Below are positions 13,012 to 19,559 of a stretch of DNA of 64,000 nt, one piece after another. The stretch comes from a virus: positions 1 to 64,000 of the IMG/VR virus record IMGVR_UViG_3300034104_005002, one strand, 5' to 3'. The position numbers and the translations under genes were made by a program. How positions within the stretch are numbered: the stretch's first letter is position 1; the number at the start of each line of letters is the position of its first letter. The notes under the pieces are model-generated. The model was not told the DNA's origin, did not search any database, and worked only from the letters and a program-made list of their open reading frames with translations.

Positions 13012-14160
13012 TCAAAGTTTGAAGTTGGCGAAACTATCTGGTTTAATGTCCTGATTAAGACCCCCTACTAGATAAGAAGTAATCTGAACCTCTTGAGGTG
13101 CAACCTGCACCCCCTTTGAACTGAGCCAGTTATCCGTCCATGGAAGAGGATTATTATTGGCCGGAATATCATAAAGAGGTTTAAAACCAATAGCCTTCAT
13201 ACGTCTATTACAAACCCACTCAACATATTGACAAAGAAGAGCGGAGTTTAACCCTATAAGTGAGCCGTCTTTAAAAATATATTCGGCCCATCTTTTTTCT
13301 TGATTAACTGCTTCTTCAAATGTCTTATAAACCCATTGCTCTTCTTCTTTTGCAATTTTAATCATATCAGGATCGTCGCCTGATTTCCATTTTGAAAGAA
13401 TATTTTGAGTTATATTTAAATGAACGGCTTCATCGCGGCTAATTAGCGAAATAATCTTCGCACTTCCTTCCATTAACTTCAGCTCACCAAAGGCAAAAGA
13501 ACAAGCAAAGGAAACATAAAAGCGAATTCCTTCTAGGATATTCACTGCCATTATGGCTCGATAAAGTTTTCTCTTTACCTCATAAAGCTCATTTTTACCT
13601 AAATCTACACCCTCATTATTAAATTGCCAAAGATTTGAAGAAGAGTATTGTTGAGCATGTTGAATATATTCATCGTAATTATCAGTAATACTCTTGGCTC
13701 TCTCTAAAATTCTCTCATCTCCAATAATAGTATCAAATATTTCGGATGGATTAGCATAGATATTTTTTATAATATAAGTATATGATCGACTATGGATCAT
13801 TTCCATGAATCCCCAGGCTTCTATACATGATTCAAGTTCTGGTAAAGAACAATATGGCAGAAAAGCAATTGAAGTTCCTCGACCCTGAACAGAATCAAGC
13901 ATAATCTGATACTTTAAATTAGAAGTATAAATGTGTTTTTGCTCTGAGCGAAGAGTCTGATAATCTGCCCTATCTTTTTGAAGATTTATTTCTTCTGGAC
14001 GCCAAAAGAAACTGAGCTGCTGTTGTGTGAGTTTTTCAAAAATTGGGTATTTATACTCATCATATCGTTGGATCCCCAATGGAGCACTAAAAAACATTTT
14101 TTGCTTTTTAGTGTTAATTTCTTCTGTATTAAAAACTGTCATTCCTTTTACTTTAGACAT
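13012..14160 (-). CDS. nrdB: Ribonucleotide reductase class Ia beta subunit
   Basis: FFWRPEE, LDSVQGR, EMIHSRSY, LEGIRFYVSF, RDEAVH and VQVAPQE motifs. Confidence 0.97.
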   Translation of the reverse strand: MSKVKGMTVFNTEEINTKKQKMFFSAPLGIQRYDEYKYPIFEKLTQQQLSFFWRPEEINLQKDRADYQTLRSEQKHIYTSNLKYQIMLDSVQGRGTSIAFLPYCSLPELESCIEAWGFMEMIHSRSYTYIIKNIYANPSEIFDTIIGDERILERAKSITDNYDEYIQHAQQYSSSNLWQFNNEGVDLGKNELYEVKRKLYRAIMAVNILEGIRFYVSFACSFAFGELKLMEGSAKIISLISRDEAVHLNITQNILSKWKSGDDPDMIKIAKEEEQWVYKTFEEAVNQEKRWAEYIFKDGSLIGLNSALLCQYVEWVCNRRMKAIGFKPLYDIPANNNPLPWTDNWLSSKGVQVAPQEVQITSYLVGGLNQDIKPDSFANFKL

Positions 14161-14172
14161 AAATTTCCTAGA

Positions 14173-14715
14173 TTAAACGTTACATGCGATACATTCTTCT
14201 TCTTCTGATGATAATATTTCAGATATTAAATCATCATTTTTAATTTCTTCGGCGGAAACATCATCGGTTTTGCCGTCATATGTGTTATGATAATATGCAG
14301 TTTTTGCACCATATTTGTATAGTAAAAGAATATTATTGACTATAACAGTGATCGGTACTTCATTATTTGGATAATTCTGAGGATTATAACTATCATTTAC
14401 ACTAATTCCCTGGTCAACGAACTTTTGCATAATAGAGACACAATTAATATATCCTTCATTTGAAGGCATTTCCCAGAGAAGTGTATAATTATTCTTTAGT
14501 TTATTATACTGAGGTACAATCTGTTTGAGAGTTCCCTTTTTAGATTGTTTAATGGAAAGATAATCCCTAGGAGGTTCTATTCCATTTGTTGCATTACACG
14601 AAACTGAACTATTATGAGATACTAGTCCTTCACAGTTGTAATGATGTACTTCCGGAACTTCAATGTCATAAGTTGGAAGAATTTCTCCTTCAAATTGAAT
14701 CGTTTTTACTTTCAT
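14173..14715 (-). CDS. nrdA: NrdA fragment 3 (C-terminal 145 aa) fused to split-intein IntC2
   Basis: After ..VSHN| come SSVSCNATNGIEPPR, QKFVDQGIS, KTAYYHNT and the C-terminal CIAC. Confidence 0.93.
   Translation of the reverse strand: MKVKTIQFEGEILPTYDIEVPEVHHYNCEGLVSHNSSVSCNATNGIEPPRDYLSIKQSKKGTLKQIVPQYNKLKNNYTLLWEMPSNEGYINCVSIMQKFVDQGISVNDSYNPQNYPNNEVPITVIVNNILLLYKYGAKTAYYHNTYDGKTDDVSAEEIKNDDLISEILSSEEEECIACNV
14611..14715 (-). mobile_element. Split intein 2, C-fragment (35 aa)
   Basis: MKVKTI...TYDIEVPEVHHY...LVSHN followed by Ser+1 (blocks F and G). Confidence 0.92.
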
Positions 14716-15766
14716 GTGTCTCCTTAAATTTTTTGTACTCGGTTAAAAGGTGGGTTTTAGTAATAGAACATTTATGTTGTTTTGAGCCATTAATACTCGC
14801 TGGAAGTATCTCTAAATTTACTATTGATCCAATTATTTCAGCTGGAATATTATTTATAAATCCCATTTTAATTGAATATTTGTGATCTAATTGAAAGTCT
14901 TTAGATCTCAATTCTAAATTCTCAATCAATTCTCCATAAAATAATAAACTCTGATTAGTATATCTAATTACAAGCGTTTTATATTTTTTAAAGTCGTCAG
15001 CAATGTCATTTTCAATCCATACTCCTAACTCCTCCATTCTTTTTCTATATTTTTCAGATACTTCAAGATAAATCTCTTGCCAAGTATCGGGGTATTTTTC
15101 ACGGAGATAATTGGTGTTTCTTTTATGATTGGGTTTTTTCTTATCTATTTCATTAAAAATAACAGCAATTTCATCTTCACTATATCCTCTTTGTCTATAA
15201 TATTCTCTATGAACACCAGAGGTTGATCTTTGATATTTACTAACTTCAATTTTAGCTTCTTCTAAACTATATCCACGATGGGTCCAATATTCTACAGTTC
15301 GTTTAGATTTTCTTTTCATAGCATATGCTTTTTCTTCTTCCCATGTTTCCCCATATTTTTCTTTGAACCATTCATCGGAAGACGGATATGCGCTGGTTAA
15401 TCTAAATTTTTCATACATTTCTAATCCTTTTTCTTCTCCATATCTTTTTATAAAAGCCTCTTTTGTTTGACCATTATCTATTTTATTTTGTTTAATAAGC
15501 TCAACAGCTTCATTATAAGAAAGGTTCCTTCTGTACATCCAATATTCTGGTTCATATTGAAGTTTTCTTTTATTTGGGTATAGAAAAACATAACTAACAT
15601 ATTTTTTAATAACCTCAAGATCAAATCTCTCTGGCGGGGTTTCTTCAAATGGCTTTCTTAATGACCTATAGTCAATTTTTCCGATTTGTTTCAATTCTGT
15701 TAAGAGTTCGTGCGGGGTTAAAATGTTAAATCTGGTTTTCATTAGAGTAACTAGTTTTGTCTTCAT
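14690..15766 (-). mobile_element. Free-standing HNH-like homing endonuclease between nrdA fragments 2 and 3
   Basis: Repeated YW..RG.S.EEA units; C-terminal LDHKYSI..GF.N.IP...NL.....N..K...CSI; paralog of 17508..18503. Confidence 0.75.
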
Positions 15767-15767
15767 T

Positions 15768-15811
15768 GATGCCTTTACTAAACTATTATTATTTAGTAAA
15801 GTGAAGGCATC
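15768..15811 (-). promoter_or_regulatory. RBS-sequestering hairpin containing a late promoter (TAAATA, 15790-15795) upstream of the endonuclease gene
   Basis: GATGCCTT..TACTAAA / TTTAGTA AAGGCATC inverted repeat ending 1 nt before the ATG. Confidence 0.75.
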
Positions 15812-15817
15812 AACGCA

Positions 15818-17518
15818 TTAAATCTCAACTACTTCGTCATCTTCATTCAATTCATAAACTCGCTTCCAGATAGTGGAACCATTTTCTAGTCGAACCAAAA
15901 ACTTATGATTGGGTGTACACTTAATCACTTTACCATTTTCAAAGGTAATAGTCGCAACTTCTTTATTTCCATTGAAATAAAGTTTATCAACTTCTTTGTA
16001 TCCATCTTGAGTTTCAACTGTAATAGTCTTGTTCAGGTCATACCAGCCGATTGCATCATTTTCCTCAATCCCTCTCCAATCAAGTCCACCATATTCGGCA
16101 ATTTGATGGAAGTCCATTTCCCCGGTAGAAGTTTTAATCTTATGTTCCCAAAAAAGGCAACTCTCCGTTGGGGGTTGAGAGGAGAGTGTAGTATGGCGAA
16201 GACCATGTTCTAAAATATCCTGACGAAGTTGTTCCCAGTCATGAGTATATTCTACATCACAAATTTCATCAACTTCTTTCTTATAAGTATCAATTGGAAG
16301 AATTCCATCAGAATACTTAGTGTGTTTAAAGTTGTCACATGCACCCTTTTCTTTTGCTAGATTATTGGATGATTTTAGAAGATAATACTGAAAACTTTCA
16401 GTTAATTTGTGGACGGCTTCCCAGGCGCCAGGATCAGAATATTTAAATCCCAATTTAGCAAGATAATGAGCCAGACCAATATAACCAATACCTAGAGAAC
16501 GACTAGCCTTGGTTGTTAATTCGGCGGCCTTAACAGGATATTCCTGGTGGTCAATTAGCTCATCTAAAAATCTAACGGAAAGATCACAACATTCTTCAAG
16601 TTCTTTATCAGACTTAATTGTACCTACATTAACACAAGAAAGAATACAAAGAGCAATAGATCCATCTACATCATCAATATGTTCAATCGGGGTAGTTTTC
16701 AGCAAAATTTCCATACAAAGATTACTCATTGTAATCTGATCCTTAAAAGGACCGTGCGAATTACAATGATCAATATTCATAAGATAAATTCGACCGGTCT
16801 CCGCACGCTCTTTCAAGATATCAATAATAAGCTCTTGGGCCTTTACTTTTTTCTTTGGAATAGAAGGATCATTTTCATACTTTACATAAAGTTCATCAAA
16901 TCCATCTAAACCAAATTTTTCATAAAGACCTGGAACATTATGCGGTGAAAACAGAGTAATTTCTCCATCCTGAATAAATCGCTCATAAAAAATTTTACTC
17001 AGCTGAATGGCATAATCAAGGTTGCGAACACGATTATCTTCTGAGCCTTTATTATTTTTTAATACAATAATATCCTCGATTTCTTGGTGCCACACAGGAA
17101 AAAATACTGTGGATGAATTATGAGTTAAAGTAAATTTTCCATTTTTGCCGACAAAATAGTTGTGATATTTATCAACAGTAAAATCATAAAAAGTTTTATC
17201 ACAATTAGATTTATAATTATGATCATTTAAAATGTCAATATAATCACCATAAACCCCTAATCCAAAAATGTTGTCGATTTCCCGTGAGTCCACCCATTTC
17301 TTATTAAGTCCATCATAAAAAGGATGAATACTAGAAGTATAAACAACCTCCCCACCAATAAGAATTTCTTCCTGATATTCTTTTTTTATTGTTGGAGTAA
17401 ATAAATTTGTTACATTTCCAACACAAAATTTATCATCAAATTCGTTATAACAATAGACTCTATCTCCAACGGAGACATCTGAAATTCTTTTCTTTGCCAG
17501 ATTAATTTTAATTTCCAT
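15818..17518 (-). CDS. nrdA: NrdA fragment 2 (catalytic middle 319 aa) flanked by IntC1 at the N-terminus and IntN2 at the C-terminus
   Basis: ..THN|SSTVFFPVWHQEIED, ERAETGRIY, MSNLCMEI, LCILS, RSLGIG, QPPTES|CLFWEH. Confidence 0.93.
   Translation of the reverse strand: MEIKINLAKKRISDVSVGDRVYCYNEFDDKFCVGNVTNLFTPTIKKEYQEEILIGGEVVYTSSIHPFYDGLNKKWVDSREIDNIFGLGVYGDYIDILNDHNYKSNCDKTFYDFTVDKYHNYFVGKNGKFTLTHNSSTVFFPVWHQEIEDIIVLKNNKGSEDNRVRNLDYAIQLSKIFYERFIQDGEITLFSPHNVPGLYEKFGLDGFDELYVKYENDPSIPKKKVKAQELIIDILKERAETGRIYLMNIDHCNSHGPFKDQITMSNLCMEILLKTTPIEHIDDVDGSIALCILSCVNVGTIKSDKELEECCDLSVRFLDELIDHQEYPVKAAELTTKASRSLGIGYIGLAHYLAKLGFKYSDPGAWEAVHKLTESFQYYLLKSSNNLAKEKGACDNFKHTKYSDGILPIDTYKKEVDEICDVEYTHDWEQLRQDILEHGLRHTTLSSQPPTESCLFWEHKIKTSTGEMDFHQIAEYGGLDWRGIEENDAIGWYDLNKTITVETQDGYKEVDKLYFNGNKEVATITFENGKVIKCTPNHKFLVRLENGSTIWKRVYELNEDDEVVEI
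15821..16159 (-). mobile_element. Split intein 2, N-fragment (113 aa)
   Basis: Starts CLFWEHKI, block B CTPNHKFL, ends W....L..DD.V at a stop codon. Confidence 0.92.
17117..17518 (-). mobile_element. Split intein 1, long C-fragment (134 aa)
   Basis: ISDVSVGDRV, block B TSSIHPFY, FYDFTVDKYHNYF, terminal THN before Ser+1. Confidence 0.9.
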
Positions 17519-18503
17519 TTTCGTACTTTTCTAATAAGGTTTCGAGTGTTATTGAGCAATTAGATTGTTTTTTTGAGTTTTCTGATTGAGAAACATATCT
17601 AAGATTATAAATAGATCCAATTATTTTTGGAGGAACATCATTATAAAAACCCCAAAAAACGCTATACATATGATCTAGAGTTTGACTTTTATCAGTTTTG
17701 ACAAAAGTATCTTTATACAATCTTAGAGTTTTTTTTGTTTCGCGTTGAACCTCCTTTTTATAAACGAAAAAAGCATATTCATCACCAATTTCGACACTCT
17801 TTTTATTTTGAATATTAGTTTTTTTGGTTTTTTCAAGTATAGATTCTTGTATATCAAGAGCCTCAAATTTATCGCACCCATATCGTTTCATTATGGCACT
17901 TATAGAATTGTTATCTTGATATTCAGAAACTTTTAATTTTGCTTCTTCTTCGGTATAACCAATTCTAATCCAATAATATATGCTTCTTGGGCTACTTTCT
18001 TTTGAAAATTTTGATACTAATTTTTTTGCATCCTCTAATGAGTGACCCCTATTTAACCAATAATCCACTGTTCTAGGAGAACAACTTCTCCTTCTTTGAC
18101 AACAATATTCATATGCCTCATCATAACTACAATTTAATTTTTGTTGAACATTTTTAATCTCAACATCAAATCTATTTTGAAGATTTTCTTTTCTTTTATT
18201 AAACTTAGCTAGACCCTCCTCCTCTCCGTACTTCTCAATATAAATTTCCAAATCTAAAGGCTTAGATTGAAATTCCCTAACCTTTATTATGGCTTCTTCT
18301 TCGCTAAATCCTCGGGTCATCCAATACTCTTTTGCATTGGGTCTATTATGTTTTTCTTTAAATGGTACATTTTTATCCAAAAATTCCCTGTAAAGTTTCT
18401 GAGCTTCCTCTTGATTTCCATTGGTTTTTTTAAGATAAAAGTAGATACTAAAAGGAGATCTACTTTTTCTAATCGTTTCTTCGTTCCAAATTAAGTCTTC
18501 CAT
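17508..18503 (-). mobile_element. Free-standing HNH-like homing endonuclease between nrdA fragments 1 and 2
   Basis: Three YW..RG.S.EEA-type repeats; LDHMYSV..GF.N.VPP.IIG...NL......ENSKKQ.NCSI. Confidence 0.75.
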
Positions 18504-18506
18504 TTT

Positions 18507-19559
18507 TTACTCCAATAACATAACGGTTTTATTTCCGTTATGACTATTTATAATTTCAGACACTTTAACCCCATCAATTTCATCATCGAGTGTATAAATT
18601 TTACCATCAATTTCTACACTATCAATTAATAAAACTTCAGAATCAGAATCAAAACAACCCCCGCGAATTCCATTTTGCGTACAACTTTTTACAGTGGCCT
18701 CAAACTTTTTCAGATAAGGAATAACTCCAGTGTGGACAACCTCACCGCCACGAATTTTACTATTTATTCCTCTAATACGCCCAGCATTAATACCTAGACC
18801 GGCTCGCTGTGCGACATATCTAAAAACCGCAGCATCACTGGCCTCAATGCTAGAAAGACTATCTCCCACGTCAACAAGAACACAACTACTATATTGCCTC
18901 AATCTAGTTCTGACTCCAGCAAGAATTGGTGTAGGAATATTAATTTTATGTTTACTAATTGCATCATAATAACGCTTCACATAAGACATTCTTTTGTCTT
19001 TAGGGTATTTTGCAAAGCCCGTAAGAGCAATTAATAAGTACATAAACTGCGGAGTCTCATAAAGAACGTTATCCACTCGGTCTTGCACAAGATACTTATC
19101 AACTACCTGCCGAAGGCCAGCATAAGTAAACAAAAGATCCCGGTCATGGTCAATAAAAGAATTGACCAAATCTAGTTCTTCTTCAGAATAGTTCTCATAA
19201 ATGGAGGCATCATAAACACCAAGGTCTACACACTTTTTAATGTGCTCACTCAGATGAGGTAGATCAATTCGACCACCATAGATCTTCTTCCGAATTGAAA
19301 ACAGAAGAAGTCTTGCGGCCACGTATTGATAATTAGGATTATCTAGAGAAATAAGATCAGATGCGGCCTTGATCAAGATTTCTTGAATTTCATTGGTTGA
19401 AATACCATCATAAAATTGAATCCCAGATGCCATTTCTACCTGAGATACTGAAACTCCAGAAAGGCCCTCACATGCGCAGGCGACCATCTCATGGAGTTTA
19501 GAAAGTTGCAATGGCTCAATAGTGCCATTGCGTTTTTTGACTTTGATTTCTTCGCTCAT
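18507..19559 (-). CDS. nrdA: NrdA fragment 1 (ATP cone, N-terminal 301 aa) fused to split-intein IntN1
   Basis: VKKRNG ATP cone, DKYLVQDR, YETPQF, PTPILAGVRT, QYSSCVL, QNGIRGG|CF. Confidence 0.93.
   Translation of the reverse strand: MSEEIKVKKRNGTIEPLQLSKLHEMVACACEGLSGVSVSQVEMASGIQFYDGISTNEIQEILIKAASDLISLDNPNYQYVAARLLLFSIRKKIYGGRIDLPHLSEHIKKCVDLGVYDASIYENYSEEELDLVNSFIDHDRDLLFTYAGLRQVVDKYLVQDRVDNVLYETPQFMYLLIALTGFAKYPKDKRMSYVKRYYDAISKHKINIPTPILAGVRTRLRQYSSCVLVDVGDSLSSIEASDAAVFRYVAQRAGLGINAGRIRGINSKIRGGEVVHTGVIPYLKKFEATVKSCTQNGIRGGCFDSDSEVLLIDSVEIDGKIYTLDDEIDGVKVSEIINSHNGNKTVMLLE
18510..18656 (-). mobile_element. Split intein 1, short N-fragment (49 aa)
   Basis: CFDSDSEVLL block A directly after GIRGG; no block B before the stop codon. 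Confidence 0.85.

Follow-up and report, generated by a model that had tools for sequence, protein, structure and literature searches.

Here, we describe a naturally split intein at the first junction of a fractured nrdA gene, which encodes the alpha subunit of a class Ia ribonucleotide reductase (RNR) in an uncultured phage. The window that we analysed is 64,000 nucleotides long and comprises the first 64 kb of the 161-kb IMG/VR virus record IMGVR_UViG_3300034104_005002. The N-terminal intein fragment (IntN1) and the C-terminal intein fragment (IntC1) are encoded by separate genes with a nuclease-like gene, HEG1, between them. The motifs, profile matches and intein-less alleles of this site support an atypically split intein that carries block B on its C-terminal fragment and is predicted to splice. 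We consider it likely that this intein, fractured at the position known as S1, reassembles from its two fragments and trans-splices the NrdA pieces 1 and 2.

An atypically split intein at the first nrdA junction

IntN1 (18510-18656, minus strand, 49 amino acids (aa)) starts with CFDSDSEVLL directly behind the end of the N-extein, GIRGG, and is terminated by a TAA stop codon at 18507-18509. IntC1 (17117-17518, minus strand, 134 aa) ends with THN and is followed by a serine at 17114-17116. A first-pass annotation of the window had already proposed an atypically split intein of 49 and 134 aa with block B (TSSIH), block F and the terminal THN on the C-terminal fragment. Its coordinates and lengths proved exact, the motif positions were verified, and profile, structural and comparative data support the assignment. 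Indeed, residues 10-126 of IntC1 match positions 9-125 of the 137-position Pfam PT-HINT profile (E 1.6e-7), and all that is missing from IntC1 are the first eight profile positions, i.e. block A. The TIGR01443 profile (intein_Cterm) scored IntC1 at 22.6 bits against a cut-off of 15.6, and phmmer aligned residues 12-127 with residues 20-133 of the C. thermocellum bacterial intein-like (BIL) domain 2lwy.

Thr61, Ser62 and His65 of block B, Asp112 of block F and the terminal His133 and Asn134 are invariant in a family alignment of 20 members, and a cysteine directly follows the N-extein in 18 of 18 IntN sequences. At the junction of intein 1, intein-less phage nrdA loci (n = 60) read NGIRGG and then SATVHFPIWH. 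Since these alleles are contiguous across the junction, the insertion is exact and Ser+1 is the native residue. In the register of the 2lwy motif TTFDH, the threonine position of the block B motif TxxH corresponds to Ser62, and the preceding Thr61 is invariant, too.

With a HINT fold, a nucleophile at position 1, block B, blocks F and G with the +1 residue and an insertion at a conserved site, intein 1 has the features of a class-1 intein. Its layout is that of a fractured gene, as the halves lie on separate, adjacent open reading frames (ORFs), with IntC1 in another frame and the endonuclease gene in between. Although its best sequence and structure matches are BIL and PT-HINT domains, the conserved NrdA site, Ser+1 and the colinear intein-less alleles place it outside the class of BIL and pretoxin HINT domains.

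Could the HINT halves act as a mere dimerisation module, with the NrdA pieces assembling non-covalently and without splicing? Such an assembly has a precedent in phage nrdA, namely Aeh1 with its mobE gene (PMC3045599), and two loci related to the window, L005 and L006, have an nrdA that is fractured by a GIY-YIG gene, with tails at the break and without an intein. However, all catalytic splicing residues are invariant across the family and the junction is exact in comparison with the intein-less alleles. Moreover, Cys1, the histidine of block B, the aspartate of block F, the terminal His-Asn and Ser+1 have been retained over 30-70% divergence, which would be unexpected for a binding module. 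We regard assembly without splicing as very improbable, and the preferred reading is a split intein that would splice in trans.

HINT fold and position of the break

The structural evidence for the fold comes from models of contiguous relatives. An IMG/VR contig (L005) and, independently, a JGI contig (L019) encode a contiguous mini form of 150 aa (P0031), which lacks exactly residues 22-49 of IntN and residues 1-6 of IntC and keeps every catalytic motif. The L005 mini form is 63% identical to IntC1. Its model, calculated with a 16-row alignment, shows the full HINT fold with a mean predicted local distance difference test score (pLDDT) of 85.3 and a predicted template modelling score (pTM) of 0.79. 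Foldseek matched this model to solved HINT domains with an E-value of 1.9e-8, and VIA aligned it with solved inteins and BIL domains with Z scores from 20.4 to 14 at a root-mean-square deviation of about 2 Å. In these alignments, residue 6 of the model (Cys1) falls on reference residue 1 and residue 155 (Asn) on the last residue.

A second contiguous relative, P0013, with an intein of about 178 aa, keeps the full extension, and no endonuclease gene is present there. It was folded with AlphaFold2 (AF2) as the full 730-residue protein, using an alignment (A7) that has no depth outside the intein, and the mean pLDDT is 45.6 overall and 56-80 in the intein. In this model, the extension is a predicted beta-hairpin with strands at residues 329-337 and 343-347 around the turn HNGNK (pLDDT 56-65). 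In alignments with Npu DnaE, Ssp DnaB, Mtu RecA and gp41-1 (Z 5-6.7), residue 352/353, where the HINT body begins to match, falls on residues 16-18 of these inteins. This point equals residue 10-11 of IntC1, immediately before KKRISDVSVGD, and in the L005 model the segment equivalent to KKRISDVSVGD is helix alpha1, downstream of the point that is equivalent to the break. The alignment of P0013 and the placement of alpha1 in L005 thus put the break after beta2 and before alpha1, i.e. at the S1 position, and, as in S1-type inteins, alpha1 and blocks B, F and G all lie on IntC. The MAFFT alignments A3 to A6 placed the IntN fragments wrongly and were left unused.

Based on these models, an extra, conserved hairpin of about 34 residues appears to harbour the break near its tip, with one strand and the turn coming from IntN and the other strand from the IntC residues MEIKIN. 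The tail of IntN1 would accordingly hold a predicted strand at about residues 29-37 and the turn HNGNK; its last four residues are variable. The initial description of IntN1 as block A plus a tail was too narrow, as residues 1-21 form a HINT core with beta1 and a small hairpin, and residues 22-45 a conserved extension. Nor does the label of a short IntN fit. Natural atypical breaks have so far been found only at S1 (VidaL, PolB16 OarG) or S2 (AceL-TerL, GOS-TerL), with an IntN of 15-37 aa (PMC13014065), and a break within the extra hairpin would explain why the IntN of 49 aa exceeds this published range.

Role of the IntN tail

What is the role of the IntN tail? In the split forms, the tail is conserved along its whole length in 18 of 18 IntN sequences. 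The ratio of nonsynonymous to synonymous divergence (pN/pS) is 0.36 for the tail codons 22-45 and 0.34 for the core codons 1-21 (21 pairs from seven loci). The mini form does without the tail, which is thus unnecessary for the fold. Since the tail is conserved and under purifying selection, it probably serves the association of the fragments in trans, and its sequence record suggests that the split forms probably require it there. The early suggestion that much of the tail may be dispensable hence holds for the fold and probably not for the split forms.

Alternatively, the tail could have no role in the protein and be kept as the DNA flank of the endonuclease gene, i.e. as start context, RNA hairpin or homing-site and co-conversion tract, with the 21-residue core associating alone. 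Synonymous divergence of the tail (pS 0.36) is indeed below that of the core (pS 0.55), a natural mini form lacks the tail, and an 8-bp RNA hairpin lies just upstream of the HEG1 start, with changes in L015 and L020 that keep the pairing. But a pN/pS of 0.36 reports constraint on the amino acids themselves, and the RNA hairpin reaches a z of only -1.5 and contains a C.A mismatch in most relatives. In addition, P0013 keeps the tail though it has no endonuclease gene, and a contiguous Campylobacter phage intein has an insert at the same spot. A tail that is preserved solely as flanking DNA is unlikely, and we favour a role of the tail in the protein.

The RNA hairpin itself (CAUAACGG / CCGUUAUG, A-rich loop; 18519-18542, minus strand) lies within the coding region of the IntN1 tail, and the GGAG and ATG of HEG1 follow about 10 nt downstream. 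The hairpin is not significant by its z score, has the C.A mismatch in its stem in most relatives, and is conserved in part, with pairing retained despite two changes in L015 and L020. The tail was also considered as a duplicate of a neighbouring segment; this was rejected, as the local alignments were not significant (shuffle p 0.07-0.35).

The first-pass annotation had further proposed that the acidic IntN pairs with a basic head of IntC. In the window, the net charge is -9 for IntN1, +3 for residues 1-12 of IntC1 and -4 for the whole of IntC1. This pattern is conserved in the close family, where IntN ranges from -5 to -10 and the first approximately 12 residues of IntC from +2 to +6 (mean +3.3). 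We see the chances as about evenly balanced that the tail and the IntC head form a hairpin between the fragments that raises their affinity, with charge helping in this lineage.

Several observations weigh against a splicing intein that reassembles through its tail. The natural deletion variant folds without the tail. The hairpin rests on one AF2 model of moderate local confidence (pLDDT 56-65), and the N-terminal strands of this P0013 model are not docked in the canonical position. In the diverged locus L185, which has the same layout, IntN has a net charge of about -1 in a by-hand count; electrostatic steering is thus not general, and charge alone does not explain the pairing. Finally, IntC1 has no clear Shine-Dalgarno sequence, and its start overlaps the end of the nuclease gene.

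Proposed mechanism

Our best explanation builds on the observed gene layout, the motifs, the HINT fold of the relative, the position of the break, conservation and selection. A class-1 intein with Cys1 and Ser+1 would have been inserted between GIRGG and SAT of the phage class Ia RNR alpha subunit, and a free-standing endonuclease gene would have fractured it at S1. After translation, we infer, IntN1 and IntC1 associate. Residues 1-21 of IntN would complete the HINT horseshoe with its N-terminal strands, and the tail strand at about residues 29-37 probably pairs with IntC residues 2-7, re-forming the added beta-hairpin, with opposite local charges aiding the pairing of the fragments in this lineage. 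Trans-splicing would then proceed by an N-S acyl shift at Cys1, transesterification to Ser+1 and cyclisation of Asn134. Intein 1 would join pieces 1 and 2, and the canonically split intein 2 would join pieces 2 and 3. With some doubt, we speculate that the family represents a natural design in its own right, in which an added beta-hairpin module bears the S1 break and would act as a built-in zipper for fragment capture.

Distribution and history of the family

Is the split form of this intein common among related phages? A word-index search found IntC1 carriers in 33 clusters at 90% identity (31 beginning with the IntC head, two contiguous), and IntN carriers in 11 clusters, all of 47-53 residues. 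Metagenome contigs, searched with a hand-made intein pattern, yielded 11 loci. In six independent split loci, the halves flank a gene of about 1 kb in the same three-gene order, and the fractured layout is present in L002, L003, L004, L015, L016 and L185. An exhaustive search of representatives returned 367 proteins at E <= 0.001, chiefly PT-HINT and BIL domains. Seven diverged clusters with about 30-40% identity have a head of the M-x-I-K-I-N type and the same NrdA junction (HN followed by S-A-T) as the IntC1 family; with the diverged P0045 and P0067 as queries, almost only extein matches were obtained. In the diverged lineage of L185, IntN is 43 aa long with a similar tail, and the endonuclease gene is a full-length orthologue of HEG1 (34% identity, E 2e-50). 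It appears that the intein has diverged in concert with the endonuclease gene, and this points to an old break.

A maximum-likelihood tree was calculated for the body of IntC; it was rooted only by midpoint and by one long split outgroup (P0062) and has modest support and weak rooting. In this tree, the two contiguous forms are placed apart from each other, each nested within split forms. The mini form P0031 has a branch length close to zero next to P0007, P0009 and P0011, and P0013 groups with P0020, P0021 and P0024 (support 80/85). P0013 comes from one 6.4-kb Logan contig, for which an assembly artefact is possible. The nesting suggests that split inteins can re-fuse through loss of the endonuclease gene. 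It is consistent with re-fusion of the intein by two independent losses of this gene, of which one would have been near-precise and the other would have removed the hairpin, too.

Are the fragments non-functional parts of a decaying gene? Some allelic loci do look damaged, as eight residues before the junction are gone in L186, L187 and L189, and L188 retains a remnant of the nuclease gene. However, the five ORFs in the window are all open, pN/pS stays below 1, many independent contigs have the same layout, and nrdB directly follows. Decay of the locus is extremely improbable, and we retain a functional split intein as the preferred reading.

Some of the related loci show further arrangements. 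In L186, L187 and L189 (1300-2250, 2359 onward), an IntN of 22 aa stands directly after KSC, no endonuclease gene lies between the halves, and the eight conserved residues that normally precede the junction (SQGGVRGG) are absent; the locus may be damaged or may use a shifted junction. In L188 (2-2186), IntN is about 75 aa long and only a 132-aa remnant lies between the halves. This remnant keeps the repeated YW/YY-x-RG-x-x-E-x-A modules without the nuclease motif and looks like a decaying endonuclease gene. Downstream of the mini-intein, a 258-aa GIY-YIG-like gene breaks nrdA again in L005 (457-4278) and L006 (1-2475). This second fracture is intein-less, with unrelated tails on both fragments, and resembles the Aeh1 mobE case (PMC3045599). 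L008 (1289-1837; also L009-L011) contains a HINT segment of 27% identity that ends in HN/SGKTT, in a small P-loop-like gene. The tblastn match begins upstream of the open frame, and this segment could be another broken or atypically split intein.

Organisation of the locus

The nrdA locus consists of five tightly packed ORFs on the minus strand (14173-19559), all of them open, and three hold nrdA pieces (Table 1). The gene nrdB lies directly after them (13012-14160). According to Pfam, piece 1 comprises the ATP-cone, the all-alpha domain and positions 1-79 of the RNR barrel profile, and the three exteins tile this profile (1-79, 79-392 and 392-523) without gap or overlap. A megablast search of the locus against GenBank phages gave no match. 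The protein P0001, which is 99% identical to IntC1, has an extra split intein directly after SNLC, the canonical NrdA site of Dassa 2009, and the window does not have it. Thus, very close phages differ in the presence of an intein at a third nrdA site.

Table 1. Features of the fractured nrdA locus (positions in the window)
Feature	Position	Strand	Basis or remark
ORF of nrdA piece 1 and IntN1	18507-19559	minus	
nrdA piece 1, N-extein, 301 aa, C-terminal GIRGG	18657-19559	minus	Pfam PF03477, PF00317, PF02867
IntN1 core, residues 1-21 (Cys1, block A strand beta1, small beta-hairpin)	18594-18656	minus	kept in contiguous mini form
IntN1 tail, residues 22-49	18510-18593	minus	conservation, pN/pS, AF2 model of P0013
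ORF of HEG1, 331 aa, between the halves of intein 1	17508-18503	minus	
ORF of IntC1, nrdA piece 2 and IntN2	15818-17518	minus	
IntC1 head, residues 1-6 (MEIKIN)	17501-17518	minus	predicted second strand of added hairpin; absent from mini form
IntC1 HINT body, residues 7-134	17117-17500	minus	basic patch and helix alpha1 (KKRISDVSVGD), terminal His-Asn
Block B (TSSIH), IntC1 residues 61-65	17324-17338	minus	
Blocks F and G	17117-17191	minus	
nrdA piece 2, middle extein, 319 aa, Ser+1 first, thiyl-radical motif SNLC	16160-17116	minus	Pfam PF02867, 79-392
IntN2, 113 aa, long canonical N-half (blocks A, B) of second split intein	15821-16159	minus	Pfam Intein_splicing
HEG2, 358 aa, HEG1 paralogue in canonical break of intein 2	14690-15766	minus	33% identity to HEG1, E 1e-28; phrog_5104
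ORF of IntC2 and nrdA piece 3	14173-14715	minus	
IntC2, 35 aa, SHN at end, then Ser	14611-14715	minus	
nrdA piece 3, C-extein, barrel profile 392-523	14173-14610	minus	Pfam

HEG1 starts three bases after the IntN1 stop codon, in the same frame, and overlaps the start of IntC1 by 11 nt. By eye it contains an HNH-like motif, and it has repeated DNA-binding-like modules; both HEG1 and HEG2 match phrog_5104 as well as each other (Table 1). Against Pfam, NCBIfam and PDB sequences HEG1 gave no match, so that the term HNH-like rests on the motif seen by eye, and the protein atlas offered weak leads only, to DUF7487, NUMOD3 and HNH. We treat HEG1 as a free-standing nuclease-like gene, i.e. a putative endonuclease gene. 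Between IntN1 and HEG1 stand the TAA and one codon (18501-18512, minus strand), and stop loss or read-through would fuse the endonuclease to IntN.

Comparison with known split inteins

Closest in architecture are the S1 inteins VidaL and PolB16 OarG (PMC10189870, PMC13014065), which share with intein 1 the break between beta2 and alpha1, an IntC that carries blocks B, F and G, a phage or metagenome origin and the HINT fold. Indeed, the VidaL structure 6vgv aligned with the L005 model with a Z score of 14.3 over 136 residues. Their IntN, however, has 15-16 aa compared to 49 aa here (47-53 aa in the family), and here the break is apparently enclosed by an extra hairpin of about 34 residues, in an NrdA host and with Cys1 and Ser+1. 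Beyond the fold, there is no detectable sequence kinship (18% identity). The S2 inteins GOS-TerL and AceL-TerL, from the terminase locus (PMC2677866), have a fractured-gene layout and a lopsided split in common with intein 1. They differ in a break after alpha1, a terminase large subunit as host and an IntN of 25-37 aa, whereas here alpha1 lies on IntC.

Dassa et al. 2009 (PMC2677866) reported seven NrdA fractures that are canonically split at the thiyl-radical cysteine, and only their terminase case was broken near the N-terminus. These inteins, NrdA-1 to NrdA-7, resemble intein 1 in their phage class Ia nrdA host, the split intein and the free-standing endonuclease gene between the halves, and intein 2 of the window is split canonically as they are. 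In contrast, their IntN has 88-105 aa and their endonuclease genes are GIY-YIG or Vsr-like, whereas intein 1 combines the site GIRGG/S and an S1 break with an endonuclease gene of the family phrog_5104.

An allelic intein of the Campylobacter phage IBB_35 occupies the same insertion site (GRGG/C ... HN/SS), is 31% identical to IntC1 and has an insert at the place of the break. Unlike intein 1, it is contiguous and has no endonuclease gene, and its 19-aa insert is unrelated in sequence. Since this insert occurs at the same spot, the loop excursion is a family trait and not debris of endonuclease-gene insertion. In Aeh1 NrdA-a/NrdA-b with mobE (PMC3045599), a phage nrdA is likewise broken by a free-standing endonuclease gene and terminal tails matter for function, but there is no intein and no splicing, and the assembly is non-covalent. 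Our literature search, which covered subscription journals poorly, found no atypically split NrdA intein.

In summary, it is well supported that nrdA intein 1 adds to a rare, useful and already known class, the atypically split inteins. Few natural members of this class have been characterised (AceL-TerL, GOS-TerL, VidaL and PolB16 OarG; PMC13014065), and such inteins are sought for protein semisynthesis. The family contributes a new host site, GIRGG/S of class Ia RNR, dozens of natural sequence variants and an endonuclease-gene family not reported in fractured genes. Its IntN (49 aa here, 47-53 aa in the close family, 43 aa in L185) lies outside the range of 15-37 aa that is within reach of peptide synthesis. 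At 49 aa it is too long to attract this use, and for semisynthesis the core of 21 residues to which the mini form points would have to be active in trans. The contiguous forms with the hairpin (P0013) and without it (L005/L019), together with split forms with an IntN of 43-53 aa, provide natural controls for the contribution of the tail. The locus indicates that two inteins with different breaks can coexist in a single phage gene, with paralogous endonuclease genes that have colonised them both. If the zipper design holds true, inteins 1 and 2 together would form an orthogonal pair of natural origin for the ligation of three pieces.

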